Shown here: positions 17,187 through 44,689 of the stretch, piece after piece
Layout: every line of letters starts with the position of its first letter
Numbering within the stretch: position 1 is the stretch's first letter
NCBI GenBank assembly: GCA_014360685.1
Contig: JACIXB010000009.1
Coordinates: 1,971-65,970 of the forward strand
DNA: 64,000 nt
Direction of reading: 5' to 3'
Source of the DNA: Actinomycetota bacterium
GTDB lineage: Bacteria > Actinomycetota > Geothermincolia > Geothermincolales > RBG-13-55-18
The notes under the pieces: generated by a model
Databases searched by the model: none
The model's input: only the letters and a program-made list of their open reading frames with translations
What the model was told of the DNA's origin: nothing
Position numbers and translations under genes: made by a program

Positions 17187-18326
17187 TCAGAAGGGCAGGA
17201 TGACCCGCAGGGCGGCGGGAAGGTCCGCCGGCGCCGCCAGGCTGGAGACGGGAAGGAAAGGCCCCTGGATGCGGGGGCCCACCAGGTAATTCCAGGTGGA
17301 GTCCCCCCGGCTCCGGTATTCCACCTCGGGGACCTCTTTTTCCAAACCCTGGAAAACGCCCCCCAGCTTCCAGGACAGCAGCTGCGGGAAGGGCACCCCC
17401 TCGATGAGGGCGTCGATGAGGAAGGGCTTGCGGCTCACCCTCTTGGGCTTTCCCCAGCCGAGGACGGGTAGGCCCATGAAGAAGTTGCGGTAGGCGGTCT
17501 TGTAGTTACCGCCGGGAGGCGAGGCGTGTGCCCTGGCCGTCCTGGTGGTTATCAAGTCCGCGAGGGAGGGGGGGAGCTCCTCCCGGCGCGACCCGCTTAT
17601 CTCCTGGAGGACTTCCTCCCATCCCCGCACCGAGGTTATCACCAGGCGCCGGTGGTCGTTGGGGCGGTATATGGTTCCCAGGTCGGGGTCCCACCTGATC
17701 TCCATGGGAAAAACGGGCAATCGGCACCGTTCGCAGACCTCGAGGTCGTAATCGCGCTCCGGGCGCCGGGAAGGGGTCTCCTTCCCCTGGGGCCAGGCAC
17801 GCCGCTCCACGGTCTTCACCGTCACCTCGTATTCCGTCTCCGACACCTCGGCCATGGAGACCAGGGCTTCCACCCCGAAGAGCCCTTCCCAGAAACCCCA
17901 GAGGTCCCCGGCCAGAAGGTGGGGATGGTAGGGATGACGCACCTTCACCTTCATCTCCCGTCTCGGCTTGAGGGCGGTGACGGAGAGGTTGCCGCTTCCG
18001 TAGAAGGCCGCCTCCCTCAGAGCTTCGCGGATCAACCTCGCCGCCCACGGGCGTCGGGCCAGCAGGCGTCGGCGAGCTCTTCCCAGCTGCGAGAGGATCT
18101 CGCTTCGCGTGAAGGAGCGGCGTTTCTCGCGCAGGGTGTCCAATAATTCCTCGCCCCGGAGCTTAACGCCCTCGGTCAGGATGAGGGAGATCTCCTCGTG
18201 TTCCAGGAAGATGAGCCGGTCGGACCTCTTTTCACGGAAATATATCCCGCCGTCCTCGGCCCAGACCAGTCTCCGGTTGAGGGCCAGGGGAAGGCCGCAC
18301 GATGGACAGTTTTGGGAATCGCTCAT
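17187..18326 (-). CDS. Hypothetical protein with two CxxC modules; paralog of 11559-12626
   Basis: CPSCG...W.EDG and CERC...W...G modules; shares GDL.G motif and overall layout with 11559-12626. Confidence 0.72.
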   Translation of the reverse strand: MSDSQNCPSCGLPLALNRRLVWAEDGGIYFREKRSDRLIFLEHEEISLILTEGVKLRGEELLDTLREKRRSFTRSEILSQLGRARRRLLARRPWAARLIREALREAAFYGSGNLSVTALKPRREMKVKVRHPYHPHLLAGDLWGFWEGLFGVEALVSMAEVSETEYEVTVKTVERRAWPQGKETPSRRPERDYDLEVCERCRLPVFPMEIRWDPDLGTIYRPNDHRRLVITSVRGWEEVLQEISGSRREELPPSLADLITTRTARAHASPPGGNYKTAYRNFFMGLPVLGWGKPKRVSRKPFLIDALIEGVPFPQLLSWKLGGVFQGLEKEVPEVEYRSRGDSTWNYLVGPRIQGPFLPVSSLAAPADLPAALRVILPF

Positions 18327-24436: not shown

Positions 24437-24528
24437 GGGGTCACATCTTCGTTTTTCGATTCCCTCTCCGTTTACGAAAAGCTTACCATCTCCAGCGAGC
24501 TGCCTCCGAAAATCGAAGATATGACCCC
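24437..24528. repeat. 21-bp imperfect inverted repeat (REP/MITE-like) between convergent genes
   Basis: GGGGTCACATCTTCGTTTTTC (24437-24457) matches the reverse complement of GAAAATCGAAGATATGACCCC (24508-24528) with 2 mismatches. Confidence 0.7.
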
Positions 24529-24532
24529 GGTT

Positions 24533-25195
24533 TCAGTAGCGGAATTCCCCGGCCAAGGCCACGAGGTTCATGACCACCGGCACGGCGTAGATGCCTCCCA
24601 CGAAGAGGAGCTTGCTCCGCATGGACTTCATGTCCAGCATCAGGTTCACGGCCGCGAACCAGTAGAAATACCCCAGGACGAAGATGAGCCAGATGCCGGC
24701 AAAGGTGCGGTTCCACCAGGGATATTCCCACACCAGGTGCCCGCCGAGGTTGAGGCACACCTCGACGAAGACGCAGAAGGCGGCGAAGAAAAGGGCGAAG
24801 AACCAGCGGTTGGGGATTCCCAGTATCTTCCTTTCCCTCTCCGGGAGCAGGGAGTGGTAATAGACCAGCCCCAGCAGCAGGAAGGTGAAGATGATCTCCA
24901 GGTTCCAACCTATGGTCATGCGGAAGGCGGTGTCTCCCGGGGTGGTCCACACCGCCGACCTCCCGGTGAAGTGGAAGACCCAGCCGTTCCAGGTCTCGTT
25001 GAAGAAGTCGCACCCGAAGACCACCAGGGCGGCCAGGATGGGATCCCAGTTGCCCGTCTCCCGCGAGCGCAGGACCTCCCGGGCGTAGATGTAGGCCACC
25101 AGCGCCAGCAGCGGGACGGCGTACCACTTCAGGGTGTGCAGGTCGCGCAGCCCCTCCAGCGCCCTACGCGAAGCCTCGGTCATTTCGAAGAACAT
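24533..25195 (-). CDS. Conserved-looking multi-pass membrane protein of unknown function
   Basis: About 6 hydrophobic helices; strong GC3 codon bias; RBS AAGGAG. Confidence 0.75.
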   Translation of the reverse strand: MFFEMTEASRRALEGLRDLHTLKWYAVPLLALVAYIYAREVLRSRETGNWDPILAALVVFGCDFFNETWNGWVFHFTGRSAVWTTPGDTAFRMTIGWNLEIIFTFLLLGLVYYHSLLPERERKILGIPNRWFFALFFAAFCVFVEVCLNLGGHLVWEYPWWNRTFAGIWLIFVLGYFYWFAAVNLMLDMKSMRSKLLFVGGIYAVPVVMNLVALAGEFRY

Positions 25196-25197
25196 GG

Positions 25198-25312
25198 CCT
25201 CTGCTCCTTTCCCCGCCTCCGGACACCGGGACTACTGTAAGTAAGTCGAGGCGCCCCTTAAAGACCATACCCGGACCTCTGCTCTTTTCCCGCCTCCGGA
25301 CACCGGCACTAC
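25198..25312. repeat. ~38-nt direct repeat duplicating the RBS region of 24533-25195
   Basis: CCTCTGCTC(C/T)TTT(C)CCCGCCTCCGGACACCGG(G/C)ACTAC at 25198-25235 and 25276-25312. Confidence 0.75.
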
Positions 25313-25668
25313 CACTCGGCCGGGGTCTCCGCGCCGCTTGGGACCCGGTAAGCGTGCCCCAGGGCCGGAGAACTACTCCATCCTTTTTCTTGGCCGTTGA
25401 GGCTGGATTTCCTTCCCTCGAACCGTGCCCTTACCCTTAACCGTGAAGGGCGAACGGATTTGCCTGCGCTCCCTTCGCCGGCTGCGGCGTCCCGGATGCG
25501 ATCAAGCGTCCTCGCCCGCCGGGCGGTGAACGGCTTTTACCCGCTCACCTGGCCGTCCACGAGGCCGATTATGGAATGGTAAATAATACCATATGGTTGA
25601 TCCGGTCGGGAGGTCTTGTGGGGGCCTCGTCTCCCGGCCACTGCCGCCGTATGACCCTTGGGCTCACG

Positions 25669-26691
25669 TCAGGCGAAGCACTCCTCGAGGAAGGCCCCCA
25701 GGTCGCGGTTCACCTCCTCCGGGCACTCCAACATGGTGTCGTGTCCCTTTTCGGGGTAGACCACCAGGCGGGATCCGGGGATCATGGAGGCCGTGCGCTC
25801 GTTGGCCTTCCGCGCCGTGAGCCGGTCCTCGCTCCCCACCAGGATGAGCACCGGGACCTCTATCCGGGAGAGGGCGGCCGGTTCCACGTGGTAATCCAGG
25901 CAGGCCTTCATGGCCCGCATGAAGTTTGGCAGGGCGGTGGAGAAGATGAGCTCCCGCTGGAATTCCACCTCCTCCGCGGGGGGTTTCTTGCCGAAAGCCG
26001 TGTAGCGCGCCAGGTAATATCCCAGGGCGGATCTCCCGTAGAGGTCCCAGGCCCTCAGCGCCAACGGCCGTTCCCTGGCCAGCAGGTTGAGGGCGGCGGC
26101 CAGAGGGAAGGGGTAAAGGCGCTTGACCAGGCTTCCGAAGACCATCCCCTCCACCACGTCCAAACCGGAGGAATCCACGAGAACCAGCCCCTTCAGGCGG
26201 CCGCCGTAGCGCTCGCCGAAGCGCTCGTGCCACTTCAAGGTGGTGAACCCGCCCATGCTGTGCCCGATGACGGCGAACTCCGGGGGGTCGAAGGCCTCCA
26301 CCACCGCCTGGAGGTCCTCGGCCAGGCGCTCTGTGCCCTGGTCCCCGCTGGCGGGCGTCCCGGACTTACCGTGACCGCGGAGGTCCAGGGAGACCACGCG
26401 GTACCTGTCCTTAAGGAAGGCCCGCTGGTAGCGCCAGATGGTGTGGTTACAGGCCAGCCCGTGCACCAGGAAGAGGGTGGGGCCCTCCCCGCAGGAGTCG
26501 GCGTAGATGGGGGTGCCGTCCGCGGAGCGTATGCCCTCCCGCGGTTCCCCGTCCGGCAGGGCCGGGGGAGGCTCCATCCCCCGGGACCTGCGGTGGTCCG
26601 CGTAGCGCACCCCCGCCGCGGCGGCATAGGCTCCCATGGTGCCTAGGAGGGCTACCTTTACCATCTTGATTCCGAACTTTCCACCAGACAT
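25669..26691 (-). CDS. Alpha/beta hydrolase
   Basis: LVHG, DLRGHG, GHSMGG nucleophile elbow, G.ED and GH motifs; start uncertain (26691 or 26664). Confidence 0.9.
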   Translation of the reverse strand: MSGGKFGIKMVKVALLGTMGAYAAAAGVRYADHRRSRGMEPPPALPDGEPREGIRSADGTPIYADSCGEGPTLFLVHGLACNHTIWRYQRAFLKDRYRVVSLDLRGHGKSGTPASGDQGTERLAEDLQAVVEAFDPPEFAVIGHSMGGFTTLKWHERFGERYGGRLKGLVLVDSSGLDVVEGMVFGSLVKRLYPFPLAAALNLLARERPLALRAWDLYGRSALGYYLARYTAFGKKPPAEEVEFQRELIFSTALPNFMRAMKACLDYHVEPAALSRIEVPVLILVGSEDRLTARKANERTASMIPGSRLVVYPEKGHDTMLECPEEVNRDLGAFLEECFA

Positions 26692-27425
26692 GCAACATCA
26701 CCCCATTTTCGAAACCAGTCGAGAACATACCCCTGGAGAACACATCCCTCTCGCGGCACACGCCTTGTGGTTGAGGAATGTCCCTTAATGATTGAAAACA
26801 TATCGTGAAGGTACTTGCAAGGGCGACAGCATCCCCGGCGGCTTTCTTGACCCGGGGCATCGCCAATGGCACGAGAGACGATACGAAGGATGTGAGTGCA
26901 ACGGGCGGTAAAAGGCGTTGCGTGCGGGTACGGCTCAGCCCGCCGCTGACTCAGGACGCGGCGGAGCAAGCGGAACCATCGCGTGCGCTTCACACGGGTT
27001 TCATACGCCGAACTCTTCATAACCGGACCTTACGTCGTGACCTGCGGAAGAGTGGAATTGGTGGCCCGCATGATCAATCTTCAACCCGGCGGAGGACATA
27101 TCAATCCAGGGTATGATCATGGAAACCGGGACGCGTCCGGTTACCAGGTCTATCCTGTGGAGGTGGAAATTTCCTTCTCCGAGAGGGACGTCTCCGGCGA
27201 GTCACACCTGCGCGCTCATCTGCGCTCGTGAGGAAAGGGTACAAGTAGAGACCATTTCCTACCAAGCGGCGCACGGGGATCGTTTACCCCTTCGTCTCCG
27301 GGGCCTTTCAGGCCGTTAACCAGAGCGACATAATGCGGCCGGCGTGAAAGCGGAATAGGGAGTTCCACTAGTGAAGACGCATTCCCGAGGTCATCCGGAG
27401 GGCTTACCTGGACAGGCTCCGGGAG

Positions 27426-28206
27426 GTGGGCGTGAAGCCCTCCTCTGGGGATGTGGCCAGAAAGTACAGGGAGATGGAGGTGGAACAGATGTCCGTACCG
27501 GAGGCGTCGCACAGAGACTATGAGGGGAACAGGATCCACCCAGCAACCTCGGTGGAGGCCGCGGCCAGGGTCTTCGGTCCTGAGGCCATAAACATAGGCG
27601 TTGGCAACATTAGCCAGTTCAATGCGCTTTACACGCGCTTCGCCAAGACCAGGACCTCGCTGGGCATCTTCGATTTCGGGCACCTGGGCACGGGCATCCC
27701 CCGGTCCATCGGTGCCAAGCTGGCCAACCCGGACAGGGAGATGTATGTCATAATCGAAGACGGTGCGGCCGGTTTCAACTTCATGGAGATGTCCACGGCG
27801 GCCCTGGGGAAGGTGAAGATAACCGTCATCATGCATGCCGGGGAGTCCCTGGTACATGGAGGAAATGGGGCAGTTGGCCTTCTTCCAGGGAGACACCTCA
27901 AAGGTCATAGCCTATCGGCAGTACCCCATACGGTGGGACTTGGCGGCGGAGAGCATGGGCTGTTACGGGAAGTACGTGTAGCGGTAGGAAGAGCTTGTGC
28001 CCGCCTTCGAGTGGGCCGGGAATCATGAGCCTCCCGTCGTGGTCTTCGTGAAAACAGATTTCTACGCCAACCTGGAACCCGCCCCTGGCCAACCGCTTTA
28101 TGGAGGCCTACGAGCAACCCGCGCAGAAAGCCGCGGAATAGCGGGGACGGAAGGACGCGGCATGGAAAGCGAACGTCCGCTCTTACCTAATATTAGAGAC
28201 GGGTGA
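27426..28206 (+). pseudogene. Fragment of a thiamine-pyrophosphate-dependent enzyme (acetolactate synthase/oxalyl-CoA decarboxylase-like C-terminus)
   Basis: FGHLGTGIP..IGAKLANPDR and EDGAAGFNFMEM (canonical GDG altered); N-terminal domains absent; likely continuation in another frame (PVVVFVKTD). Confidence 0.7.
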
Positions 28207-28328
28207 ACAAGCAATAAATCTGTTCCTCGGGCCAGGGAAGGACCTTGCAAAGCTTCATCTTTACTTATGCCCGGATCTCTCCTTATTATTTATGCCAGGG
28301 TCAGTTTTCGGCTTTAAGGGGGTTCGTC

Positions 28329-29762
28329 ATGGGTGAGTGCAGCACCATCGTCATCTGCGGAAGAAGAATCACCGATTACGTCTTATCCTGTCTTTCCCAG
28401 TTCAACAACGGCAAGGATCTGGTCGAGCTGAAGGCGGTTGCCGGAAACATAACCAGGGGCGTCGAGATAGCGCATATCCTGAAGTCCCAGGTACAAGACA
28501 TAATCCTGGAGAAATGCGAAATAGAGACCACGAAGATTATTGGCGTCGATACGCCATGCCTCGATATTAACCTGAGATTCAGCGGGCAAAGGAGGCAGAA
28601 AACGGAGGAAGATTTTAGGGAAGTCCTGGCCTATCCCTACTATCACCTGCTTTTCGACCGGATTCTCCACAAGTACGGAAAGTTATCCATATCCAGGTTC
28701 GATGACGTAAGTCTCCTCGACATACTGCACGAGAATGGTTGCATCAAATGCGTGCGCGCTGATGGTTACCCCGACGCGAACATCTATTTCAAAGGGGTGG
28801 GATCGTTCTTGTACCGTTCCTCGATGATACTGCCGGCCAACTGGAAAGAGGTCTCTAACGTGTTATCCGCTTCTGACGACGTCATCATCGGGGTAGATAC
28901 CAATATCCTCTATAACTGCTCATTGACGGAGCACCTCATTCCCTCGCTTTCCGTGGCGGATATAAAGAAATACGTGCATACTCCCAACTGGATACTTCTA
29001 GTCATACCGAGTGCGGTGATGCACGAACTGGAAGAGGCCTCGAACATAAGGGACGACAAGGGTTTTCTACAGGTGGAGGGAAGAATCGGGTACCGCGCGC
29101 TCCAGGAGATCCTGGAACTGAGCGAGGGCACCGACATAGAGGGGGTTTCCGTGGTTATAGTCGGGGAAACGAACCCCATACTCGATACCCGGGTGGAGTT
29201 GCAGGGGCTGAGATCCGACTTTTGCAGGATGGGGGCCGTTGGCGTCGCGGGCGGGCCCTTCCTTTCCAAGAAGAAATCGAGCGGTGACATGATCATAAGG
29301 GATCAGTTCAAATCGTTCCTGAGGCAGATAGGGTTCCATAAGGGCATTTACTTTATGACTGCCGATAAGTCCAACGCCGCCCTATCCCGGGCGGAAGGGC
29401 TGAACTCCATCCTTCTCGTGTTTCCGTTCGAGCAGCTGAAGAACAACAAGGAATTTCTGCCACCGGCCATCGACGACAACGGCAGATATAGGGTTAATGT
29501 TCCGCTGGGGAAATTGATATATGAGGCGGCCGTGGAAAACGGCACCATTAAGATCACTTACCACAACGGAAAGACTGGGAGAAAGATAACCCTGCATTGC
29601 GATTCGAGAGGAGAGACATTGGATAACTGGGTACAGAGAAATCTCTTTTTCAGAGAGGATGATTTAGGGGTCCTTCAGGAGGATTACGATCCCATTTTCA
29701 GTTTCCGGGAGATAGGCAACATCTGGCGGGTTCTCGCGCCGAGATTGGGATATGAGATATGA
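28329..29762 (+). CDS. Alba-like domain fused to a PIN-domain nuclease
   Basis: N-terminus IVICGRRITDYVLSCLSQFNNGKDLVELKA...ITRGVEIA resembles archaeal Alba; PIN motifs GVDTNIL, IPSAVMHELE, GDMII and FMTADK; lower GC than flanks; start ATG 28329 after AAGGGG. Confidence 0.72.
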   Translation: MGECSTIVICGRRITDYVLSCLSQFNNGKDLVELKAVAGNITRGVEIAHILKSQVQDIILEKCEIETTKIIGVDTPCLDINLRFSGQRRQKTEEDFREVLAYPYYHLLFDRILHKYGKLSISRFDDVSLLDILHENGCIKCVRADGYPDANIYFKGVGSFLYRSSMILPANWKEVSNVLSASDDVIIGVDTNILYNCSLTEHLIPSLSVADIKKYVHTPNWILLVIPSAVMHELEEASNIRDDKGFLQVEGRIGYRALQEILELSEGTDIEGVSVVIVGETNPILDTRVELQGLRSDFCRMGAVGVAGGPFLSKKKSSGDMIIRDQFKSFLRQIGFHKGIYFMTADKSNAALSRAEGLNSILLVFPFEQLKNNKEFLPPAIDDNGRYRVNVPLGKLIYEAAVENGTIKITYHNGKTGRKITLHCDSRGETLDNWVQRNLFFREDDLGVLQEDYDPIFSFREIGNIWRVLAPRLGYEI

Positions 29763-30047
29763 ACCAGGCGGAAAGCCGGTCCCGCAGGGATTTTCGCCAA
29801 AGAAAAATACCGTATATGTCAGCGTTCGTGTTTAAACGCCAGGAGAAATACGTGCCTTCTTCCTGAAAAAGCGGTCGCACTGTTTTTGTCCATCACTCAA
29901 GTCTTAATTCCGAAGTTCTGGGGATTCCCGCGGGAATGCAAGATCTAATGCGAGACATGATGGGGGGATCACAGGATCTGTCGTCGGCGAGTGGTATAAA
30001 TCCAACATAGGGTGTTCCCGAAAATATTTTTCGAAGGGTGATGGGCA

Positions 30048-30272
30048 ATGGCCGGATTTTTCGATTCCCTCGGCGACGCCTTCTTAGCCGGGGAGATCAT
30101 CGGCTTCATCGAGGACAACACCCGGGAGTGCCGCCGCTGCGGCGGGGAGGTGGCCTTCGACGAGGAGGGCTTCGAGGAGTACCTCTGCCCGCGCTGCCTG
30201 GAGGAGGAATACTACGACGGAGATTTCGACGAGGAGGGCGAGGAGGGCGGGGACTTCGAGGACCGCTGGTAG
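30048..30272 (+). CDS. Small, highly acidic Zn-ribbon protein
   Basis: CRRC-x15-CPRC; very D/E-rich; GC3-biased codons; TGGTATAAA upstream. Confidence 0.65.
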   Translation: MAGFFDSLGDAFLAGEIIGFIEDNTRECRRCGGEVAFDEEGFEEYLCPRCLEEEYYDGDFDEEGEEGGDFEDRW

Positions 30273-30591
30273 GTCCTTTTATGGTAGATCCTGATAAGCG
30301 AGATATACGACTGTCGCCGGTTGGCGGCGCCTAAGCATGTGTGGATGATCCACAATTCCCGGAACGCAGGGATCAACGTCTGATAGGGAGGGAGATAAGG
30401 TTGATCCTGCAGCCATCGCGGGGCGCATGGAAGGTCAGGACAGAAAAGCATGCAAATGCCGAAAACGATAACTTGACGGCCGCGAAATTAGGAGATGGGG
30501 AAAGACCGGGCGAGGGGTGCGGCTATCGCCGGTTGCTGAGGAGGAAAAGGTCCGCCAATCCATCTGGAAAACAAAGGAAAGGGGTTCAGCG

Positions 30592-32571
30592 TTGGCCAGG
30601 ATGATACCGGAGACCAGGGTGGAGCCGGGCGCCCGCGGAGAGCTCAGGTTCTACCGGTACCTGAGGGACGGGCTGCCCGACGACTACACGGTCTTCCACT
30701 CCCTGCCCTACCTCTCCGCCGGGGAGAGGGGTATCTTCGATCACGAGATAGATTTCCTGGTCGTCCACCGGAGGAAGGGCATCCTGACCCTCGAGGTCAA
30801 GGGCGGCGAGGAGATCATCTACCGCCCCAAGGAGAAGAAGTGGTTCTCCGTCCCCGCCTCGGGCGATAAGCGCCACGAGATAAAGGACCCCTTCGACCAG
30901 GCGCGGGGCAACATGCACTGGCTGAAGAAGGAGATCCTCAACCGCGGGGTCTTCCCCGGGGCGGAGGACCTGCCCTTCGCCTACGGGTACGCGGTGGCCT
31001 TCCCCGACGCCTCGGTGCAGACCAAGTATTTTCCTCCCCACGCCATTCCGGAGCTGGTCATCGACCGCGACGGCTTGGACCGGGTGGGGGAAAGGATAGA
31101 GGAGATCATGGGCCGCATGAGGCGCCAGGGCAGCCGGGCCATGAGCGAGCAAGAGTACAACGACCTCTACAACAAGTTCCTCCTCCCGGAGTTCCGCCTC
31201 ACCGCTTCCATAGCCCGGCGCCTGGAGGACGAGGAGGCGCAGATCGTCCGCCTCACCGAGGAACAGTGCCGCATGCTGGACTTCCTCCGCAACCGGAAAA
31301 AGGCCCTCATCCAGGGGTACGCGGGGACGGGCAAGACCCAGCTGGCCGTGGAGAAGGCCCGCCGCCTGGCCGCGGAAGGGCTTTCCGTGCTCCTGCTGTG
31401 TTTCAACAGCCCCCTGGCCGCCTACCTGCGCCGTCAACTCCGGCCGGAAGAGGGAAAGATAGAGGCCTACAATTACCACGACCTGTGCATCCGCCTGGCC
31501 CAGAGTGCGGACCTCCCCTACGAGGTGCCGGGGCCGGAGGACTCCCAGAGAAGGCGGCGCTTCTGGGACGAGGAGGTGCCCCTCCTCCTGGAAAAGGCGC
31601 TGGACATCCTCGACGTCCGCTACGACGCGGTGATCATGGATGAGGGCCAGGACTTCAAGCGCCACTGGTCGAAGAGCGTGCTCAAGCTGCTGCGGGACCC
31701 CAAGGAGGGCCACCTCTACATCTTCTACGACGAGAAGCAGAACATCTACCACGGGGACGACCTGCAGTTCCCGCTGAGAGGCGAGCCCTACCTTTTGAGC
31801 GAGAACTGCCGCAACACCAGGAGGATATGCGAGATGGCCTCCCGCATAGGCGGCATCGACCCGGAGGGCTACCGTTACCAAAGGAACCCGGAGGGCGAGG
31901 AGGTGCGCTTCCTCCCCTACCGCGACCCGGCCGAGCAGCCGGGGCTCATCGAGGACACGGTGCGCAAGCTCCTCAAGAAGGGCTTGAAACCGGGGCAGAT
32001 AACCATCCTCTCGCCCCGGGTGAGGGAGAAGAGCTGCCTCGCCGGGGTGGAGGAGATCGCCGGGTGCCGGGTGGTGGATTACGAGGAGCCGGTCCCACCC
32101 GACGCCCTGGTCTTCTCCACCCTCAAGCGCTTCAAGGGGCTGGAGTCCGACGTGGTCATCTTCTGCGACATGGACGGGAAGTTCCCCATCCACGACCGCA
32201 AGGACCAGTACGTGGCCGTCACCCGCGCCAAGCACCTCCTCTTCGTGGTCCACGACCGGGACTGGAGCCCACCCGAAAACCCGCCCTCTGACCCGCGGAA
32301 CGCTAGGCCCGTGAGCGCGCCCTCTGACCCGCGTGACGCCCGGCCGGAAAAACCGCCCTCTGACCCGCGGGACGCCCGGCTTGAAGGCCTGCCAGGCGGT
32401 TCGCCGGACGCCCAGCCCGAGAGCCTGCACTCTGCACCACGGGACGCCCGATCCGGAAGCGCGCCCTCGGTCAAGCTGGTGGGCCAACGTGAGGATACGA
32501 CGAGCGGTACGCCCCAAAGCCCACCCCCGGTCAAGCCGGAGGACCAACAAAATGGCCCTCCCGACGGATGA
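30592..32571 (+). CDS. NERD nuclease fused to an SF1 (UvrD-like) helicase/ATPase
   Basis: GE...EIDF...LEVKG...P..Q NERD motifs; GYAGTGKT Walker A; DEGQD, ENCRNT, FKGLE and YVAVTRAK motifs; start TTG 30592 after AAGGAAAGGGG. Confidence 0.85.
   Translation: MARMIPETRVEPGARGELRFYRYLRDGLPDDYTVFHSLPYLSAGERGIFDHEIDFLVVHRRKGILTLEVKGGEEIIYRPKEKKWFSVPASGDKRHEIKDPFDQARGNMHWLKKEILNRGVFPGAEDLPFAYGYAVAFPDASVQTKYFPPHAIPELVIDRDGLDRVGERIEEIMGRMRRQGSRAMSEQEYNDLYNKFLLPEFRLTASIARRLEDEEAQIVRLTEEQCRMLDFLRNRKKALIQGYAGTGKTQLAVEKARRLAAEGLSVLLLCFNSPLAAYLRRQLRPEEGKIEAYNYHDLCIRLAQSADLPYEVPGPEDSQRRRRFWDEEVPLLLEKALDILDVRYDAVIMDEGQDFKRHWSKSVLKLLRDPKEGHLYIFYDEKQNIYHGDDLQFPLRGEPYLLSENCRNTRRICEMASRIGGIDPEGYRYQRNPEGEEVRFLPYRDPAEQPGLIEDTVRKLLKKGLKPGQITILSPRVREKSCLAGVEEIAGCRVVDYEEPVPPDALVFSTLKRFKGLESDVVIFCDMDGKFPIHDRKDQYVAVTRAKHLLFVVHDRDWSPPENPPSDPRNARPVSAPSDPRDARPEKPPSDPRDARLEGLPGGSPDAQPESLHSAPRDARSGSAPSVKLVGQREDTTSGTPQSPPPVKPEDQQNGPPDG
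32272..32469 (+). repeat. Degenerate 36-nt tandem repeat (~5 copies) encoding 12-aa PSDPRDARP-type units
   Basis: CGCCCTCTGACCCGCG recurs every 36 nt three times, then two decayed copies. Confidence 0.85.
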
Positions 32572-32673: not shown

Positions 32674-35600
32674 ATGAGCATCTTTCAACTGAAGGACGCC
32701 GTGATCGAGGAATATAAGGAATACGTGCACAGTTTCCTCACCATCCAGGACGAGAGGATCCGCGATTTCGTCTCCCGGGAATTGTTGGAGAAAGGCGTCC
32801 TGTGGCCGCCGGCCCTCGTCCAGCTCAACCCCGCCTATAAAAAGGCGGCGAGCGTAGAAGATCTGGTAGCCGAGGGGAAGCTGCATCCCGAATGCGCGGA
32901 GATCTTCCGTGACCGGGACGGCAGGTCCATAACCCTTTTCCAGCACCAGCAGGAGGCCATCGAGACGGCCCTTTCGGGAAGGGGTTTCGTGGTCACTAGC
33001 GGAACGGGTTCCGGGAAGAGCCTCACCTACTTCGTGCCCATAATCGACGCCGTGCTCAAGGGCGATCCCCGTGAGCATAAGGTATGGGCCATCATCATCT
33101 ACCCCATGAACGCCCTGGTGAACTCGCAATTTTTGGCCCTGCAGGAGATGGCGGACGCATATCAAGAAAGGACCGGCCGCCAGTTCCCGGTGCGTTTCAA
33201 CCGCTATACAGGCCAGAACCTTTACGACCGTCCGGCTATCCAGAAGGAGCCACCCCACATCCTCCTCACCAACTACGTCATGCTTGAGCTGATGCTGGTC
33301 CGCCCCGAGGAACACGTCTTCGTGGATCGCACCACGGCCGGCGTAAAGTATCTGGTCATAGACGAGCTCCATACCTACCGGGGGCGCCAGGGCGCGGACG
33401 TGGCCCTCCTCATCCGCCGCCTCAAGGAGAGGTGCGGTAACCCGCATCTTTTGTGCATGGGCACCAGCGCCACCATGATCGCCGGAAAAGATTCCTCGCG
33501 CCAGGAGAGGCGCCGGGCGGTGGCCGATTTCGCCCAGAAGATGTTCGGCGCTCCCTTGCATCCCGATCAAGTAATCGAGGAGAGCCTGGAGCGCCTGACC
33601 TTCGGCGCCGGAGAAACCGATGGCCAAAGTCTCAAGGAGGCCGTGGGCTCCCCGTTGCCCGACGAGCCGGAAGCCTTCCTGCGCCATCCCCTGGTCTCCT
33701 GGTTGGAGGACAACTTCGGCCTCGAGGAGGAGGAAGAAGGGCGGTTCAGGCGCCGCCCCCCGCTCAGCCTCGAGGAGGGCGCGTCGAGGCTCTCGGAGCT
33801 GACGGGGCTGGACGAGGAGGCCTGCCGGGAGGCCTTGAGCCGGGTTTTCCTGAAGGGAGCGTCCCTGCGGAACGCGGAGGGCGAGCCCCTGCTCTCCTTC
33901 AAATTGCACCAGTTCATAGCCCAGGGGAACCGCGTTTTCGCCACCCTGGAATCTCCTTCCCAGCGCCTCCTGGACATGGAGGGACACGCTTATGCGAGCA
34001 GGGAGGGTAGAACGCTGCCCCTCTTTCCCCTCAAGTTCTGCCGGGTCTGCGGCGTGGAGTACTACGAGGTGGCGCACGACCCCCAGGACAGCCGTTTCGA
34101 GCCCTTGGGAGACGAATCCGAGCTTGTCGACGAATACGGTGAGGCCAAGGAACGGGGATACCTTCTCGTACCCCCGCAGGAACGCGACGTGGAGTGGGGA
34201 CCGGAAAATCTTCCCAGGGAGTGGCTCCAGGACAACGGAAAGGTCAAGAGGGATTACCGCGACTACGTCCCCCGGCCCGTGTGGGTCTATCCAGATGGCA
34301 AGTATTCCCAATACCTGGCCGAGGACGCCGTCAAGGCCTGGTTCCAGCCCTTCCCCTTCCGCCTCTGCTTGAACTGCGGGGTCTTCTACACCGGCAAGGA
34401 CAGCGAGTTCAGCAAGCTCGCCGGCCTCTCCAGCGAGGGGCGGAGCAGCGCCACCACCGTCCTGACCCTCTCGGCGCTTGAGAAGGCGCCCGTGGGTGAC
34501 ATAGAGGAGGGGGCCCGCAAGGTCCTCAGCTTCACCGACAACCGGCAGGACGCCAGCCTGCAGGCCGGGCATTTCAACGATTTCGTCCGCACGGGGCTTC
34601 TCCGGGCCGCCATATACCGGGCGGTGAGCGAAGCCGGCCCCCTCCGCCACGACCAGGTGGCTTCCAGGGTGGTGGAGGCCCTGAACCTTCCCTTCCGGGA
34701 GATCTCCGCCAACAAGGATCTCCAACCCCATACCCCCCTGGGAGGCGAGGTGTTGAAGGTCTTTACCGACCTCGTCGAGTACCGCGTCTACGAGGACTTG
34801 CGCCGGGGGTGGCGGTTCTTGCAGCCCAACCTGGAACAGTGCGGCCTTCTACGATTCGACTACCTGGGGCTCGAGGAGCTGTGCGCCGACGGGGAGGCCT
34901 GGCGGGAGCTCGAGCCCTTCGCGGGCCTCGACGCCGCCGGGCGACGGGAGATCCTCACCGCCCTGCTGGACCACTTCCGCAGGCAGCTGGCCGTCCATGC
35001 CTACTGGCTGCAGGAGACCAACCAGCAGCAGTTGAGGAAGCGCGTGGAGGAATGCATTGACGAGAGGTGGGGTTTCGGCGATGAGGGGCGCCTTTTCACC
35101 GCCTCGCGTTTCGTCCTTCCCGGCCAGGAGGAAAAGATCACCAACAGCTACAGCCTGGCCGAGAGGAGCCTGGTGTACCGCTACCTGAAGCGGGTTCTAC
35201 CTTCCTTCTTGCCGGAATACTCCGAGAACATGCACGGGCTCATGGATATTCTCTGCGCCCATGGCCTCCTGCGCCGCGGCAGCGAAAGGGGGATTTCCTA
35301 CGTGCAGGTGGAGTCGTCGTGCCTTATCTGGAAGCCGGGTGAAGGGACTCCGGCCGGGGAGCCCCTTTACCGGAGGCGCTCCGACGACCCCGTTTACCAA
35401 AAGGTGGAAAAGGAGGCCAACCGCTATTTCGTCAACTTCTACACCCGGCCGCCCGGCCTGCTGCTCCTGGCCGAGGGGCGGGAGCACACCGCCCAGGTCG
35501 ATTACGAGCGGAGGCAGGAGAGGGAGCGCCGTTTCCGGGACGGCGAGCTCAAGTGCCTCTTCTGCTCGCCCACCATGGAACTGGGTATCGACATCGCCGA

Positions 35601-37748
35601 CCTGCAGCTGGTGCACATGCGCAACGTCCCACCCACCCCCGCCAACTACGCCCAGCGCAGCGGCCGCGCCGGCCGCATGGGCGACCCCGCCCTGGTCATC
35701 ACCTACTGCCTGGCCGGAAGCGGCCACGACCAGTACTTCTTCCACCATAAGCGGGAAATGGTCTCCGGTTCCGTGCAACCCCCGCGCATCGACCTCTCCA
35801 GCGAGGAGCTGGCCAGGACTCACCTTCATTCCATTTGGCTGGCCAGAACCGGGCTTTCCCTGGGCCGTTCCATAACCGAGTTCATCGACGTGCGCCTGGA
35901 GGGCTGCCCCCTGAACGAGGACGCGGCGAACAAGGTGAAGCTCGGCGAGAAGGCTTTCCGTGAATGCCTGGAGGAGGCCCGGCGCATATTCGCATCCTGC
36001 TATCCGGAGGGCGAGGCGCCGGCCTGGTATTCCGAGGAGTGGCTGGAAGAGGCGCTCAAGCGGGCCCCGGAGGAGTTCGACCGGGCCTTCGACCGCTTTC
36101 GCGAGCTCTACCGCGCCGCGGACCGCCAGTGGATGGAGGCCAACGAGATCCTTCGCTATCCTACCGGCAACAAGAAGGAGAGGGAGGAGGCCAGGAGAAG
36201 GCGCGACGAGGTGGAACGCCAGAAGCAGCTACTGGAGAACAGCACCTCGTTCTACGAGGAATCGGACTTCTACCCCTACCGCTACCTGGCCAGCGAGGCC
36301 TTCCTCCCCGGCTACAACTTCCCCCGCCTGCCCCTTTCCGCCTTCCTGCCGCGAAAAGGGGAAGGCGATTACGTGTCGCGGCCCCGCTTCCTGGCCATCT
36401 CCGAGTTCGGCCCGGAGAACCTCATCTACCACGAGGGCTCCAAGTACCGGGTGGCCAGCCTCAAGACCGTGCTTTCCGACCTGGAGAAGAGGCTCTTCCA
36501 GGCGAAGATCTGCAGCACCTGCGGATATCTCCACTCCGACGAGAGCGTGGAGATATGCCACAACTGCGAGAGCCGCCTCTCCGGCGAGGGTTACGCCTAC
36601 GCCACCCTGCTCGAGGCCACGAGCGTATATACCCGCCGCAGGGAGCGCATCACCAGCGAGGAAGAGGAAAGGGTGCGTTACGGCTACGACATCACCACCC
36701 ACTTCGAGTTCTCCCCCTCCAGCGGGGCGAGCGAGGGGCGCGTCCCGGCCGTGGTGAGCGACAAGGGAGGCAAACCGCTCCTGGAGCTCGTCTACGCGCC
36801 ATCGGCCACCCTGTACCGCGTGAACCATCGCTGGAGGAACAGCAGGGAGTCCGGCTACCTCCTGAACATGGATACGGGGGAGTTCCTCTCCCGGAGCGGT
36901 CGGGACTCGGAGAGGGCCGCTTCCGCCCGGGTGGAGACGGTGCGCCTCTTCGTGCGCGACACCATGAACGTCATGCTCATCTACCCCGGCCGCGACGGCC
37001 TCGAGCTTACCGAGGAGACCCTGGCCACTCTGGAACACGCCCTGCGCCGCGGCATGGAGAGGGTCTACCAGCTGGAACCCTCCGAGCTCGCCTCGGAGCG
37101 CATCGGGAGCGACGGCCGCCGCGGCATCCTCTTCTACGAGGCCGGCGAGGGAGGCTACGGCATTCTGCGCGCCCTCGCCGTGGAGAGGGACGCCCTGGCC
37201 GCCGTGGCCCGCGAGGCCCTGGCGGCGTGCCACTACCACCCGGACAGCCTGGAAGACCTCAACGCGGAATGCCTGCGCGCCTGCTACGACTGCCTGCTCT
37301 CCTACACCAACCAGCGCGACTATCCCCTGCTCGACCGCGCGCTGGCCAGGGACCTTCTCGCGGAGATCTCCCGCTCCGAGACGCAACCCAAGGTCAGGGG
37401 CCGGGATTACCACGAACATTACCAATGGCTGCGCGCCCTCGCCGATTCCCGTTCCGAACTGGAGAGGAGGTTCCTCGACCACCTCTACGCCACCGGGCGC
37501 CGCCTTCCCGATGACGCCCAGCGGGCGCTGGCCGACCACCACGGCACCGTCCCCGATTTCTTCTACGAGAAGTACACCTGCGTTTTCTGCGACGGGTCCG
37601 TGCACGACGAGCCCGCCCAGAGGGAGAAGGACATGAAGGTGCGGCGGGAGCTGGAAGATCTTGGGTACCGCGTCGTCGTCATCCGTTATGACCGTGACCT
37701 GGAGGAGCAGGTATCCAAGTATCCTGATGTTTTCGGGGAGGCGAGACC

Positions 37749-37752
<4 letters not shown>
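32674..37752 (+). CDS. YprA/SftH-like DEAD/DEAH helicase with DUF1998 and C-terminal Vsr/DUF559-like nuclease
   Basis: Q motif LFQHQ; SGTGSGKS, YPMNAL, DELH, TSAT, TMELGIDI and QRSGRAGR motifs; several CxxC pairs; C..ACYDCL DUF1998 motif; SELE...PDF...FCDGSVH...D...R..L...GY.V tail. Confidence 0.88.
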
Positions 37753-40585
<2,833 letters not shown>

Positions 40586-40589
<4 letters not shown>

Positions 40590-43500
40590 GCCGCTTCGAG
40601 AGCCTTCGCGTGGAGGGCGGGCTCCTCAGCCCGGACCTCATCGACCGCATCGCCGACGGCGAAGCGCCGGGGCAGAAACCGGCCGACTTCGGCCTCCCGC
40701 CCAAGGCCGCTTTCATAGACGAGATCTCCGAGGCCTGGGGCGCCGCCCGCCGCTTCTGGGAGGCCTTCCGGGCCCGCCTGGAGCGCCTGTCCCCCGACGA
40801 CCCGGCCACCGGGCCCACCCGCGACCAATGGGTGATACCCCTCATGAGCCTCCTCGGCTACGATCTGACCTACCGTCCCAAGGCGCAACTGGTGGACGGG
40901 CTGACCTTCGCCGTGAGCCACGGCGCCGGCCCGAACGCGGACGCGCCGCCGGTCCACGTGGTGGGTTGGCGGCAGGACCTGGGCAAGCTCCCGCCCTCCG
41001 GTCGCCCCCGCCTGGCGCCTCACGTGCTGGTGCAGGAATACCTCAACCGCACCGAGCATCTCTGGGGCGTGGTCACCAACGGCCGCATCCTGCGCCTGCT
41101 TCGCGACAGCCAGCTCCTCTCCCGCCAGGCCTATATCGAGTTCGACCTGGAGGGCATGTTCGAGGGGGAGAGGCTCTCCGACTTCGCACTTCTCTGGCGC
41201 CTGGCCCACCGCACCCGGCTTCCCCGCGGCATGGACGACGCCCCCTCCTGCCTCTTGGAGAGCTACTACGTGGAGAGCGTGGAGCAGGGGGGAAGGGTGC
41301 GCGAGCGGCTGCGCGACGGGGTGGAGAAGGCCCTGGTAATAATTGGTAATGGATTCCTTTCCCACCCCGCCAACGACGGGCTGCGCGAGCGGGTGGCCAC
41401 GGGTGAGACCAGACCGGAGTCCTTCTACCGGGATCTCCTGCACCTCATCTACCGCCTGCTCTTCCTCATGGTGGCCGAGGAGAGGAAGCTCATCTCCCCC
41501 TCCCCCGTTTACCTGGAGCACTACAGCCTGGAGCGCCTGCGCCGCCTGGCCGACATGCGCCTGCGCGGCGAGGAACACCGGGACCTCTGGATATCCCTGC
41601 AGGCCACCTTCGACCTCTTCCGCCGCCAGGAGCTGGGGGCCCTTCTCCAGGTGCCTCCGCTCAACGGGGAGCTCTTCGAGGAGACGGAGCTGGACCGCTG
41701 CGCCCTCTACAACCGGGACCTCCTGGCCGCCCTGCGCGAGCTCTCCACCTACGCCGAGGACGCCCGCTCCCCCCGCCGCCGCGTCAACTACTCCGCCCTG
41801 AACGTGGAGGAGCTGGGGAGCGTTTACGAGAGCCTGCTCGATTACCACCCCGCCTTCCTCGAGCGGGAGGGGAGGGCCGACTTCCGCCTGGTGCCGGGTA
41901 CGGAGCGCAAGGCCACCGGCTCCTACTACACCCCGCCCGAGCTGGTCAACGAGCTGGTGAAGAGCGCCCTCGAGCCCGTGCTCGCGGGGAGGCTGGCCGG
42001 GACCAGGGGCAGGGAGGAAAGGGAGAAGGCCATCCTGGACATCAAGGTCTGCGACCCCGCCTGCGGGAGCGGCCACTTCCTCCTGGCCGCCGCCCGCCGC
42101 CTGGGTAAGGAGCTGGCCCGCGTGCGCACCGGCGACGAGGAGCCCGCCCCCGAGGAGGTGCGTTCCGCCGTGCGCGAGGTCATCGGCCACTGCATCTACG
42201 GGGTGGACAAGAACCCCCTGGCCGTGGACCTCTGCAAGGTGGCCCTGTGGATAGAGGGCCATGCCGAGGGGCGACCCCTCACCTTCCTCGACCACCGCAT
42301 CCGCTGCGGCGACTCCCTGGTGGGCGTCTTCGACCTCAAGGTCCTTGAGGAGGGCATACCCGATGGGGCCTTCGAGCCCGTGGCGGATGACGACAAGGCC
42401 CTCGCCAGGTCCATAAAGAGGGACAACAAGGCGGAGAGGACCGAGAGGGCCGATTGGCTTTCCTTTGCGGTGGAGGCCGAAAGCGACGTTCGCGAACTCT
42501 CCGAGGCCTCCCGCAGGCTCTCCGATATCCCCGACGACACCCCGGATCAGGTGCGTAATAAGCAGGAGGCCTACGAGAGGCTGCGGGGCGAGGGAGGGCG
42601 CTGGTGGAACGATAATACCGCCTGCCACCTCTGGACGTCCGCCTTCTTCGCCAGGCTGGATAAGGATAGCTACCGGGAGAAGGCCGTCCCCACCACCGAG
42701 GTCCTGCGCAATTATTTAGACAATCCGGCATCCGTTGATCCTCGATATCCTAGCCACGCTTGGGAGGCGGCGCTGCGCCACCGTTTCTTCCACTGGCCCC
42801 TGGAGTTCCCCGAGGTCTTCGAGAAGGGGGGCTTCGACGTGGTGCTCTGCAACCCCCCGTGGGAGTTGATACAGCTTCAGGAGAAAGAATTCTTTGCGCA
42901 TAGGGACCCGCATATTGCCTCGGCTCCAAATTCGAATGCTCGTAAAAAGATGATAAAGGAACTCCAGATACGCAAACCCGCCTTATGGCGGGAATATCTG
43001 GATTCTTTACATCTTGCCGATGCAACAAGAAAATTTCTACGTAAATCGGGGAGATTCCGTCTTACCTCGAGCGGAAGGATAAATCATTATTCCGTCTTCT
43101 CCGAGCTCTTCAGCGGGTTGATCAACCCGGACGGCAGGGCGGGAGTGGTGGTGCCCACCGGCATCGCCACCGACGACACCAACAAGGAGTTTTTCTCCCA
43201 CCTGGTGAATAAGGGCTACCTGGCCAGCCTCTACGACTTCGAGAACCGGGATAAGATCTTTCCGGCGATTCACAGCAGACAGAAGTTCTCCCTCCTCACC
43301 CTCAAGGGCGACGGCGCCGAAGCTGGTAAGCCGGCGCGCTTCGCCTTCTTCCTCACCCGCGCCTCCCAGCTCAGGGACGAGCGGCGGGTTTTAGAGCTCA
43401 CCGCCGAGGACTTCGCCCTCCTCAACCCTAACACCCGCACCTGCCCCGTCTTCCGCACCCGCCAGGACGCCGAGCTCACCAGGTACATCTACCAGAGGGT

Positions 43501-44689
43501 GCCGGTACTGGTGAACGAGGCCACGGGCGAAAACCCCTGGGGTGTCACTTTTAAACAAGGTTTATTCAACATGTCAGACGACTCCCACCTCTTCCACACC
43601 CGAAGCGAGCTCGAGGAAGCCGGCTTCCGCCTCCACGGCAACCGCTTCGTCAAGGGCGAAGGCGCCAAGCGCGAAGTCTGGCTCCCCCTATACGAAGCGA
43701 AGATGATTCACCAGTTCGACCACCGCTTCGGCACCTACGAAGGCATGAACCGACGCACCAACACGCAGATTGCCACCCCAACCCCTGAGCAGCATGCCGA
43801 CCCTTGTTACTTGGTTGAGCCATGGTACTGGGTGGAACAAGAGGAAGTAAATACAAGATTAGGCGAATATGGAAGAAAATGGCTTTTAGGCTTTCGCGAC
43901 ATCGCAAGGGCAACCGATGAGCGCACCGCCATCTTCACCGTTATCCCAAAAACCGGAGTTGGAGACACTCTACCGTTACTGATTGTTAAAAACCTAAAAA
44001 CGCTTTTTGTTTCCTCTATTCTCTCTAACTTCAATGCTGTAATCCTAGATTTCATAGCTAAACAGAAAATTGCTGGAACACACCTGAATTTTTTCTATGT
44101 CGAGCAATTCCCAATCTTGGGCGCTTCAAATCTTGATGTTAGCTATTTGAATTTGATAATTCCCAGATTTTTAGAACAAATCTACACCTCCTGGGACATC
44201 AAGCCTTTCGCCGATGACGTGTGGCGTGAGGCCGATGAGGATCTCCGGAAGGCCATCCGAACCCAATGGGAGGAGAACAAACGGGCCACGGGAGGCCATA
44301 CCTGGGATCCTCCCGAGTGGACGGAGATCGCCGAGGACGGCATCCACCTCCCTCCCTTCAAGTGGGACGAGGAGCGTCGTGCCCGCCTGCGCGCCCAGCT
44401 GGACGCCATCTACGCCAGGCTATACGGCCTCAACCGCAAGCAGCTCCGCTACATCCTCGACCCCGCTGACCTCACCGAGAAGGAGCTGGAGGACATCCTC
44501 GACGACTATGAGGAGGTGGAGGACCCTCTGGACGAGGAAGCCTACCGCCGCCGCTGCGAGGCCTCCACCTTCCCCGGCGAGACCTTCCGCGTCCTCAAGG
44601 AAAAGGAGATCAGGAAATACGGCTTCTACCGCACCCGCCGTCTGGTCCTCGAGGCATGGGAGAGGTTGAACGAGAGGGATCGGAAATGA
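40586..44689 (+). CDS. Type IIG/Eco57I-like N6-adenine DNA methyltransferase (DrmMI/BrxX-like)
   Basis: VTNG..LRL N-domain; LG.VYE.LL, RK.TGSYYTP, DPACGSGHF (motif I), YGVD and GFDVVLCNPPW (motif IV); C-terminal TRD region; ATGA overlap. Confidence 0.9.

Follow-up and report, generated by a model that had tools for sequence, protein, structure and literature searches.

Passages of the published PIN classification state that PIN is the commonest toxin fold in type II toxin-antitoxin systems (PMC5499597), and according to passages of a second paper Sulfolobales encode accessory proteins that combine a CARF domain with a PIN domain (PMC6546367). Here we describe a gene that occupies positions 28329..29762 on the + strand of a 64,000-nucleotide stretch of contig JACIXB010000009.1 from an Actinomycetota bacterium (assembly GCA_014360685.1), referred to below as the window, and that encodes a protein with an N-terminal Alba domain and a PIN nuclease domain. 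The solved protein that its model resembles most is SiRe_0806 of Sulfolobus islandicus (PDB 9jxw; 9jxx with the cyclic oligoadenylate cA4), on which our literature search found no paper. Nor did that search turn up any paper that describes an Alba (PF01918)-PIN protein, and the word 'Alba' does not occur in the main text of the PIN classification, the supplements of which, not covered here, could list the architecture. The earlier note on this DNA had called the architecture undescribed, and with neither a paper nor a PADLOC model found this statement holds.

Compared with that note, the present analysis adds a four-domain anatomy, a two-branch history with a sister branch located in an ftsY operon, and a structural tie to a cA4-binding Sulfolobus protein. 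The window protein is intact and, judging from its model and conserved residues, probably a homodimeric, metal-dependent endoribonuclease. We give about an even chance to the reading that Alba-PIN is a self-contained, nucleic-acid-sensing RNase effector with a role in immunity.

Domain architecture and structural relatives

The gene and the four domains of its product are as follows.

28329..29762, + strand: Alba-PIN gene, intact; ATG at 28329, stop codon at 29760-29762, 477 amino acids (aa) plus stop
28329..28589, + strand: Alba domain, residues 1-87, beta-alpha-beta-alpha-beta-beta; Pfam match and structural match to solved Alba proteins
28626..28823, + strand: small alpha-beta-beta-beta-alpha domain, residues ~100-165, defined from the model; invariant Y105 and R163; no family match
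28878..29423, + strand: PIN domain, residues 184-365, with a helical/disordered insert at ~283-317; acidic residues D190, E233/E235, D320 and D346
29496..29744, + strand: C-terminal alpha/beta domain, residues ~390-472, defined from the model; invariant G394, E399, D425 and W434; no family match

The full-length model was built by AlphaFold2 on a 45-row alignment (pLDDT 87.9, pTM 0.89), and a model of the Alba-less core, residues 88-477, on a 41-row alignment (pLDDT 85.6); the latter was compared with all 48,161 representative chains. The N-terminal Alba domain proposed in the earlier note is well supported. Pfam PF01918 covers residues 12-57 (E 1.8e-9, 37.7 bits, cut-off 25), phmmer against PDB finds Mth10b (3toe) over residues 3-79 with E 5.2e-7, and a profile of 45 homologues matches 13 Alba chains in PDB with E-values of 1.7e-11 to 6.9e-8. 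Residues 1-90 of the model have pLDDT 79-95, and its comparison with solved Alba proteins by VIA-align gives Z 10.4-12.3 and a root-mean-square deviation (rmsd) of 1.1-2.4 Å over 79-88 residues. The Alba part, which was also aligned to Mth10b, AF1956 and P. horikoshii Alba, does not reach the NCBIfam equivalog cut-offs for Alba (33.8 vs 88.25 for TIGR00285 and 31.4 vs 90 for NF003088); on its sequence scores it is related to the free Alba chromatin/RNA-binding protein as a domain and is not its orthologue. It also matches the RNase P/MRP subunits Rpp20/25 and Pop6/7 at Z 8-9.6. The 'Alba domain' named in papers on SAMD9/SAMD9L is presumably the AlbA_2/Schlafen-type domain of a different family.

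In the PIN part, the Pfam family PIN_4 (PF13638) scores the window protein at 17.4 bits, under its cut-off of 21.9, which is passed by several relatives (L024 26.4, L026 22.9, L036 26.0); many homologues carry a precomputed PF13638 label. The fold match to 3i8o (MJ1533) has Z 10.4 with the whole model and Z 12.3 with the model of residues 88-477, in the latter case over 136 residues at 26% identity. Other PIN folds matched by the Alba-less core model include Nmd4 (Z 10.4), PINA (5f4h, 10.2) and SMG6/EST1A (8.3), with VapC toxins at only 6-7. A weak NCBIfam match of the window protein is to PRK13764, named 'ATPase', which we take to be the PINA family. An ESM Atlas search returned no clusters other than the protein's own and those of PIN_4, and a viral structure library gave only generic PIN or PhoH-type matches. 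The four acidic motifs that the earlier note had pointed out, VDTN (D190), HELE (E233/E235), GDMII (D320) and TADK (D346), are confirmed by the fold match and by conservation: all five residues are invariant across the 45 homologues, and in the 41-row alignment that includes both branches of the family no row departs from D190, E235 and D346, and at least 90% of the rows keep E233 and D320. Their assignment to catalytic positions follows their place in the secondary structure rather than a residue-level superposition.

The two-domain view of that note was right about Alba and PIN and wrong in the count, since the model and the invariant columns show four domains. The two overlooked domains, in the middle and at the C-terminus, are equally conserved, and Pfam at E<=1 gives no match on residues 88-184 and 366-477. 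The alpha-beta-beta-beta-alpha order of the middle domain is reminiscent of a double-stranded RNA-binding domain, a resemblance in the order of elements only.

The top structural match of the whole model is SiRe_0806, at Z 14.4 over 287 residues, and the Alba-less core matches 9jxw at Z 14.7 with rmsd 4.0 Å over 251 residues (model span 7-384, chain span 151-420). Since matches to PIN alone stay at Z <=12.3, the likeness to SiRe_0806 reaches beyond the PIN domain. Nothing in the Alba-less core model corresponds to the N-terminal ~150 residues of SiRe_0806; from the title of the PDB entry and from passages of PMC6546367 we take this extra region to be a CARF-type sensor of cA4. Because Alba and the extra ~150 residues of SiRe_0806 both precede the same core, the family looks like one nuclease core with exchangeable N-terminal sensors. 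The variants of this position look like Alba, a cold-shock domain plus Alba, none, and a cyclic-oligoadenylate binder.

In Alba homodimers the contacts are made by helix 2 and by the hairpin of strands 3 and 4. A symmetric homodimer is probably formed by the window protein as well, according to structure prediction, with a score of 0.72 (runs 0.58, 0.72 and 0.74) and 0.00 for the best of three controls. The score mark is reached by 20 of 30 solved same-chain pairs and by 1 of 23 solved single chains, a calibration that is rough because a custom alignment was used. The runs share at least 85% of their contacts, with a partner pLDDT of at least 79, and the predicted symmetric interface joins Alba to Alba through residues 38-53 and 60-80 and PIN to PIN through residues 213-223 (including invariant W221), 267-278 and 330-338.

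Family distribution and genomic neighbourhoods

When 5.8 billion proteins were searched, 172 of 7,998 scored candidates matched at E<=1e-3, and the best 120 of the 172 are mostly full length with 37-72% identity. The few names found on the matches are hypothetical protein, 'DNA-binding protein Alba' and 'ribonuclease P subunit p25 family protein'. Three homologues (P0034, P0040, P0059) have an extra N-terminal cold-shock domain; no longer fused homologues (836-2385 aa) were found, which is weak evidence. A genome survey with one genome per species (185,579 species) yielded 74 loci, and metagenome contigs contributed 173 relatives, from which 80 were kept.

A tree of 68 rows, from which L002 was omitted for its in-frame stop, splits into two clades with a support of 100 each in the SH-like approximate likelihood ratio test (SH-aLRT). 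Clade A has 23 rows on long branches, and its full-length members bear Alba; it spans Actinomycetota, Bacillota, Chloroflexota, Minisyncoccota, Bacteroidota, Acidobacteriota and Thermodesulfobacteriota as well as the archaeal Thermoplasmatota, Thermoproteota and Brockarchaeota. Clade B has 45 rows on short branches, all labelled Thermoplasmatota or Methanobacteriota, and consists of Alba-less proteins of ~363-368 aa whose matches start at query residues 81-163 (~96-99 in the longest). The window protein groups with that of Candidatus (Ca.) Solincola (72-75% identity; SH-aLRT 100) and then with that of a metagenome-assembled genome (MAG) of Eubacteriales (88). The earlier note had asked whether the nearest homologues are archaeal; by this placement they are bacterial, and archaeal nearest relatives are ruled out.

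Within the class to which the window belongs, three of 41 genomes have a match, its own genome included. The other two are one of the three further genomes of the genus, at 75% identity, and a genome from another family of this order, whose copy is 63% identical and interrupted by an in-frame TAA. This scatter, together with the low GC content at third codon positions (GC3) of the gene and the patchy tree of bacteria and archaea, is in line with the horizontal acquisition assumed in the earlier note.

Neighbours of the Alba-bearing branch were scanned at 66 loci, reduced to 63 after the duplicates L090, L100 and L101 were dropped; left out beforehand were L002, for its in-frame stop, L107, which lies on the same contig as L019, and the truncated or partial matches L014/L108, L020, L120-L122, L127, L130-L132 and L134. 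Four open reading frames (ORFs) were considered in genome loci and three in metagenome loci, as called by a crude longest-ORF heuristic, with Pfam applied to all loci and PADLOC to genome loci. A defence- or conflict-type neighbour was found in 21 of the 63 loci, the window included, and no neighbour is universal.

Genes of cas type lie near Alba-PIN in three loci, of type III only at L010. The latter, in a Desulfobacteraceae MAG (10861-17494), encodes a type III-E gRAMP (Cas7-11e; 4.2e-128) with a fused C-terminal cold-shock domain, a fusion of reverse transcriptase (RT) to Cas1 and an MntA-like nucleotidyltransferase, Alba-PIN lying two ORFs from RT-Cas1. At L106 the order is Cas7/Cas8-like, Alba-PIN and Cas4-Cas1, and the neighbour at L129 is Cas1. 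Other positive loci have GmrSD and type I HsdR (L070), ThsB-type TIR and/or caspase (L011, L019, L022, L109, L126), CHAT and a serine recombinase (L016), SIR2_2 (L099), a Panacea antitoxin domain directly downstream (L104), PemK/MazF (L123, L125), vWA with Tubulin_2 (L082, L133), or a metallophosphatase with vWA or a kinase (L093, L111, L128); L023 is counted solely through its BLAST cluster with caspase genes. Ambiguous cases are a HerA/TrwB-like ATPase (L004, L084), ClpP and an AAA protein (L118), M48 peptidase (L110, L115), TumE (L007), a trypsin-like protein (L012), an IS110 transposase (L098) and archease-RtcB (L005). Taken together, distribution and neighbours suggest that genes of the Alba-bearing branch move about as accessory genes and time and again end up in defence or conflict islands.

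A conserved partner protein directly adjoins Alba-PIN in nine of the 63 loci, eight of them detected by a hidden Markov model (alignment A2) and the ninth being L018. Its N-terminal domain has the motif ADxTG..PNVxYE.G.A and gives weak Nuc_deoxyrib_tr matches, below cut-off, in three of five pieces; its C-terminal part is an S1 RNA-binding domain. In five Bacteroidota-type cases the partner contains TPR repeats, recognised by Pfam in L011, L019, L021 and L109 and by alignment only in L022, and the Acidobacteriota partners L015 and L018 have extra S1-like repeats instead. In the window's own genome the partner was not found, and only S1-domain matches on another contig were seen. The earlier note had spoken of a single-gene system, a description that is not general, given the nine loci with the S1-domain partner.

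In three Flavobacteriales MAGs (L011 3939-13162, L019 2471-13763, L022 3826-13994) we observed a recurrent co-directional array in the order TPR-histidine kinase, LuxR-type response regulator, S1-domain partner and Alba-PIN. It is followed by genes for a DUF4407-like protein (Pfam match in L011 only), ThsB-type TIR (L011, L019), caspases (all three) and vWA (L022). By its gene content the array looks like a regulated multi-effector conflict system.

The Alba-less sister branch has a different setting. Among 48 clade B loci, the same gene lies directly upstream on the same strand in 41, the next gene is the same in 39 and the third in 25; read from one representative of each gene, these neighbours are a GTPase of the signal recognition particle (SRP) SRP54 type and of FtsY length, prefoldin alpha and ribosomal protein L18Ae, respectively. 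The operon L18Ae, prefoldin alpha, FtsY and a PIN protein of 363-368 aa is conserved in 41 of 48 Thermoplasmata loci (L024-L072), e.g. at L024 6050-8773. With the family profile, 11 of 101 genomes sampled from the class are strongly matched, as are 25 of 44 within a single Thermoplasmata order; in the latter, 24 genomes show a single match and the twenty-fifth shows two pieces of half length that lie on different contigs. Only the Alba-bearing form is present in one Thermoplasmata genome whose deposit consists of a single chromosome record. By gene order and distribution the clade B setting is lineage-restricted, vertically inherited and of housekeeping type. An RNase tied to an SRP-receptor operon seems to be undescribed.

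The Alba-PIN locus in the window

Other features of the window around the gene are listed below.

28316..28322, + strand: Shine-Dalgarno-like AAGGGGG, 6 nt ahead of the ATG, seen in the sequence
28260..28289, + strand: promoter-like site TTTACT, 18 nt, TATTAT; weak, with 1 site against 1.9 expected by chance (27800-30700 scanned)
28200..30000 (approximate), no strand: low-GC patch, 0.47-0.57 in 200-nt bins, confined to the gene and its two flanks
27113-28206 (remnant 27426..28206), + strand: decayed gene of a thiamine-pyrophosphate enzyme; TPP_enzyme_C profile positions 1-80 of 151, with pieces in different frames
30048-30272, + strand: ORF of a very acidic 74-aa protein, zinc-ribbon-like with CxxC...CxxC; GC3 0.907 (host-like), start collinear in L081
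30517..32571, + strand: NERD + UvrD-type helicase; Pfam NERD and UvrD_C_2, PADLOC RTasNERD-Hel 6.7e-73 and C3a187 2.7e-37
32674..44689, + strand: three co-directional defence-type genes with Pfam and PADLOC matches
47399-52858, + strand: 1819-aa protein after the GmrSD/HEC-05-like gene; weak ATPase_2/AAA_22 matches at residues ~1133-1282

The Alba-PIN gene is enclosed in an ORF at 28245-29762 (+), which has a TTG extension upstream; its first ATG, at 28329, was adopted as the start. The gene is single-copy in its own genome (100% self-match). DNA contigs of three studies, the runs of which may include the source sample, cover 26500-30175 with zero differences. Among the data sets listed as carrying the gene none is of RNA. 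A further run, labelled metatranscriptomic and rated 'probably DNA', has contigs over 27614-29178 and none over 29321-30188, and nothing was inferred from it.

The gene was said to be lower in GC than its host, and indeed it has GC 0.511 and GC3 0.674, compared with GC3 of 0.85-0.91 for neighbouring genes. The statement that no antitoxin gene adjoins it upstream is likewise borne out: within 300 bases upstream on the + strand there is no ORF of at least 50 aa besides the gene's own TTG extension, and hence no upstream antitoxin gene of VapBC type. As to the boundaries of a possible insertion, the sole tRNA of the window lies at 13442-13528, and convincing flanking repeats were not found.

The earlier placement of the gene in a defence island agrees with the matches downstream, which include the NERD helicase and, in the block of three co-directional genes, a 1692-aa DEAD/MZB helicase that is DruE-like (PADLOC 1.8e-92), a 946-aa SNF2 helicase that is DpdE/DrmD-like (DpdE 5.8e-204; DrmD 1.2e-87) and a 1367-aa Eco57I-type methyltransferase that is DrmMI-like (8.7e-85). 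Further downstream a GmrSD-like gene matches PADLOC HEC-05 (5.2e-21). The 1819-aa protein that follows has no PADLOC or NCBIfam family and may be a STAND-like defence protein. From the NERD helicase to the methylase GC3 is host-like (0.81-0.91), with 0.74 for the GmrSD-like gene and 0.63 for the 1819-aa ATPase, and the latter two genes lie in a second low-GC block at 43000-53000 (GC 0.48-0.56). The 74-aa ORF between Alba-PIN and the NERD helicase has no Pfam or PADLOC match. Among the 23 window ORFs scanned there is no Cas family, cyclase or Cas10.

In the 3' part of the NERD-helicase gene (32142-32358) contig depth rises to ~55,000 (X7) and ~1,979 (X1), with loose ends at 32181-32259, which suggests a repeat or a sequence common to other abundant organisms. 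This segment encodes a low-complexity repeat of PSDPRDARP type.

The contig L081 encodes a 93%-identical Alba-PIN protein and is collinear with the window over 24437-30160. Relative to L081, the window has three deletions in the thiamine-pyrophosphate enzyme gene; L081 has an ORF for TPP_enzyme_M and an extra 1.7 kb, 0.75 kb and 0.53 kb. A Ca. Solincola contig has the upstream hydrolase gene and the Alba-PIN gene in common with the window. From this collinearity and the patchy presence of the gene, Alba-PIN has occupied its present spot within the genus and yet is not fixed there.

Proposed function and comparison with known systems

If Alba-PIN is a sensor-effector, its two Alba domains would pair on a two-fold axis as Alba dimers usually do, and the pair would bind nucleic acid that is double-stranded or structured. 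This binding would deliver RNA to, or license, the two PIN sites (D190, E235, D320, D346), which would cut RNA and shut down the infected cell or the invading element. RNA is indicated as the substrate because relatives add cold-shock and S1 domains and because the closest PIN folds come from RNA-surveillance and related proteins; these indications, together with the mobile, conflict-island behaviour of clade A, are why a self-contained sensor-effector is favoured. A possible but doubtful history of the family, which we offer tentatively, is that an archaeal housekeeping RNase core, as in the Thermoplasmata ftsY operon, gained exchangeable sensors, so that Alba-PIN would be a novel type of immune sensor-effector made of one protein. 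With a cyclic-oligoadenylate binder it would have become a CRISPR ancillary nuclease of the SiRe_0806 type, and with an Alba dimer a protein that detects foreign double-stranded or structured nucleic acid directly and responds by cleaving RNA, and in the latter form it would have spread horizontally to at least seven bacterial phyla, sometimes with the S1 partner (with a deoxyribosyltransferase/TIR-like domain and usually TPR).

Several observations weigh against a sensor-effector with an immune role. The location of clade B in an operon with ribosomal-protein, prefoldin and ftsY genes means that the nuclease core is not intrinsically a defence module, and it suggests a cellular RNA as the substrate of the core. 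Identity of 38-48% between phyla over all four domains is unusually high for a fast-evolving immune gene. No relative was found on viral contigs, and among the families of PADLOC-DB 2.0.0 none matches the window protein at E<=1. SiRe_0806 is absent from the PDB matches of both family profiles, at 12-14% identity to the model, so that the likeness is structural only. The Alba half of the predicted dimer may echo Alba dimers that are already solved.

The neighbourhood data are likewise mixed. The earlier note proposed to check whether homologues are enriched in defence neighbourhoods; 21 loci have a defence or conflict gene, and the other 42 have no clear defence neighbour, many of those outside the ambiguous cases being short. 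Some loci look ordinary (L001, L006, L013, L017/L117 and L007, the last with RsfS and SMC), and in a Minisyncoccales MAG (L005, 2623-12507) the context is one of RNA repair or tRNA, with a run of PHP, archease, intein-containing RtcB, NIF3, Alba-PIN, DUF763 and an Elp3-like radical SAM enzyme. The fraction 21/63 is a raw count with no matched control, in 14 of the 63 loci the contig holds no ORF upstream of the gene, and the positive loci are partly kin (six are of Bacteroidota type, and L111/L128 and L123/L125 are pairs); it is therefore suggestive, not proof.

The main rival, which we consider unlikely, is that the protein is an enzyme of RNA processing or quality control whose target is a conserved RNA of the cell, for example rRNA, tRNA or SRP RNA; it would then be an accessory copy of the function of the Alba-less branch and would lie in a defence island by coincidence. 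The position of that branch directly downstream of ftsY with prefoldin alpha and L18Ae, its single matches in most of the 25 genomes of one order, the catalytic and many other residues common to both branches and the high conservation across phyla can all be explained in this way, and so can the PIN fold, which is nearer to RNA-surveillance and archaeal multidomain PINs (3i8o, Nmd4, PINA, SMG6) than to VapC, the archease-RtcB neighbours at L005 and the match to Alba-fold subunits of RNase P/MRP. However, 38 of the 41 related genomes, which are for the most part at least 90% complete, gave no match, so the gene cannot be essential here; its GC3 is foreign, one relative's copy is broken by a stop codon, and among the 63 loci of the Alba-bearing branch there is no recurrent housekeeping neighbour, whereas defence or conflict neighbours are frequent. 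Somewhat less likely still is a toxin-like, selfish or stress-response RNase that serves addiction or dormancy, is restrained through autoinhibition or through an antitoxin that lies nearby and varies, and has no dedicated anti-phage role. The prevalence of PIN among type II toxins, the patchy distribution and the neighbours Panacea (SocA-like, L104), PemK/MazF and TumE are what this proposal would predict, but Panacea occurs in only 1 of 63 loci, no antitoxin-like ORF lies upstream of the window gene, the sole small ORF downstream (30048-30272) is host-like in GC3 and has no family match, and a protein of 477 aa with four domains contrasts with the ~130 aa of VapC.

It is improbable that the protein acts on DNA or RNA:DNA hybrids, with Alba as a DNA or chromatin binder and PIN as a structure-specific cutter, for instance as a repair enzyme or as a partner of the helicases and methylase encoded nearby. 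Archaeal Alba proteins have been deposited as DNA/RNA-binding proteins, some members of the PIN-like superfamily cleave DNA according to the abstract of PMC5499597, the PINA protein matched at Z 10.2 is a Holliday-junction helicase with an N-terminal PIN, and DNA helicases and a DNA methylase are neighbours in the window. Those helicase and methylase genes have host-like GC3, however, and are not conserved beside homologues, the cold-shock and S1 domains added in relatives bind RNA or single strands, and the closest PIN folds come from RNA enzymes. The idea with the lowest standing, very improbable in our judgement, is that the gene is an inert passenger, recently transferred and unexpressed or non-functional in its host. 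The foreign GC of its flanks, the decaying gene upstream and the in-frame stop in an orthologue from a related family would be expected of a passenger, but the ORF is intact with every family-invariant residue, collinear and intact copies exist in the 93%-identical contig and in Ca. Solincola, DNA contigs of three studies show zero differences, and a Shine-Dalgarno-like site is present.

If the sensor-effector reading is true, Alba-PIN would be a defence effector whose PIN RNase is controlled by a chromatin-type Alba domain instead of a cyclic-nucleotide sensor, an archaeal housekeeping nuclease would have been recruited to immunity and then exported to bacteria, and the core of SiRe_0806 would belong to a far wider scaffold family. 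If the housekeeping reading is true, the Thermoplasmata branch would indicate that an RNase not known so far goes with the operon of the SRP receptor. This work offers a testable role for bacterial Alba domains, and the family lends itself to testing, being made of one compact gene (477 aa) with strong conservation and a confident model.

Compared with the archaeal Alba proteins of the Sso10b/Mth10b/AF1956 family, the Alba part has a matching fold (rmsd 1.1-1.5 Å over ~80 residues), retains both the basic motif G-(K/R)-(K/R), close to its N-terminus, and the stretch ...KA.G..I.R.V..A.I..., and uses helix 2 and strands 3-4 in the predicted dimer; in contrast to them, it is a domain of a 477-aa enzyme in a bacterium and not a free 90-aa chromatin or RNA protein. 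With VapC-type toxins the protein has in common the PIN fold and four conserved acidic residues, but it differs in its low fold similarity to them (Z only 6-7), the lack of an adjacent antitoxin, its four domains and a length three to four times greater. The PIN_4-like proteins MJ1533 (3i8o), PINA, Nmd4 and SMG6 provide the closest PIN folds; unlike them, the window protein has no ATPase, KH or helicase-binding part, and the insert at 283-317 and the domains on either side of PIN are peculiar to the Alba-PIN family. SiRe_0806 has a structurally similar core, in front of which the window protein carries Alba and not a cyclic-oligoadenylate-binding N-terminus like that of the CRISPR ancillary effector; no Cas family was found among the 23 window ORFs scanned. 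The CARF- and SAVED-nuclease effectors of type III CRISPR and CBASS (cyclic-oligonucleotide-based antiphage signalling) systems are similar, by analogy only, in having a dimeric N-terminal sensor on a promiscuous nuclease, and different in that the ligand proposed for Alba-PIN is a nucleic acid and not a cyclic nucleotide. Alba-PIN is best placed as a variant of the sensor-coupled PIN RNases rather than as a categorically new system.

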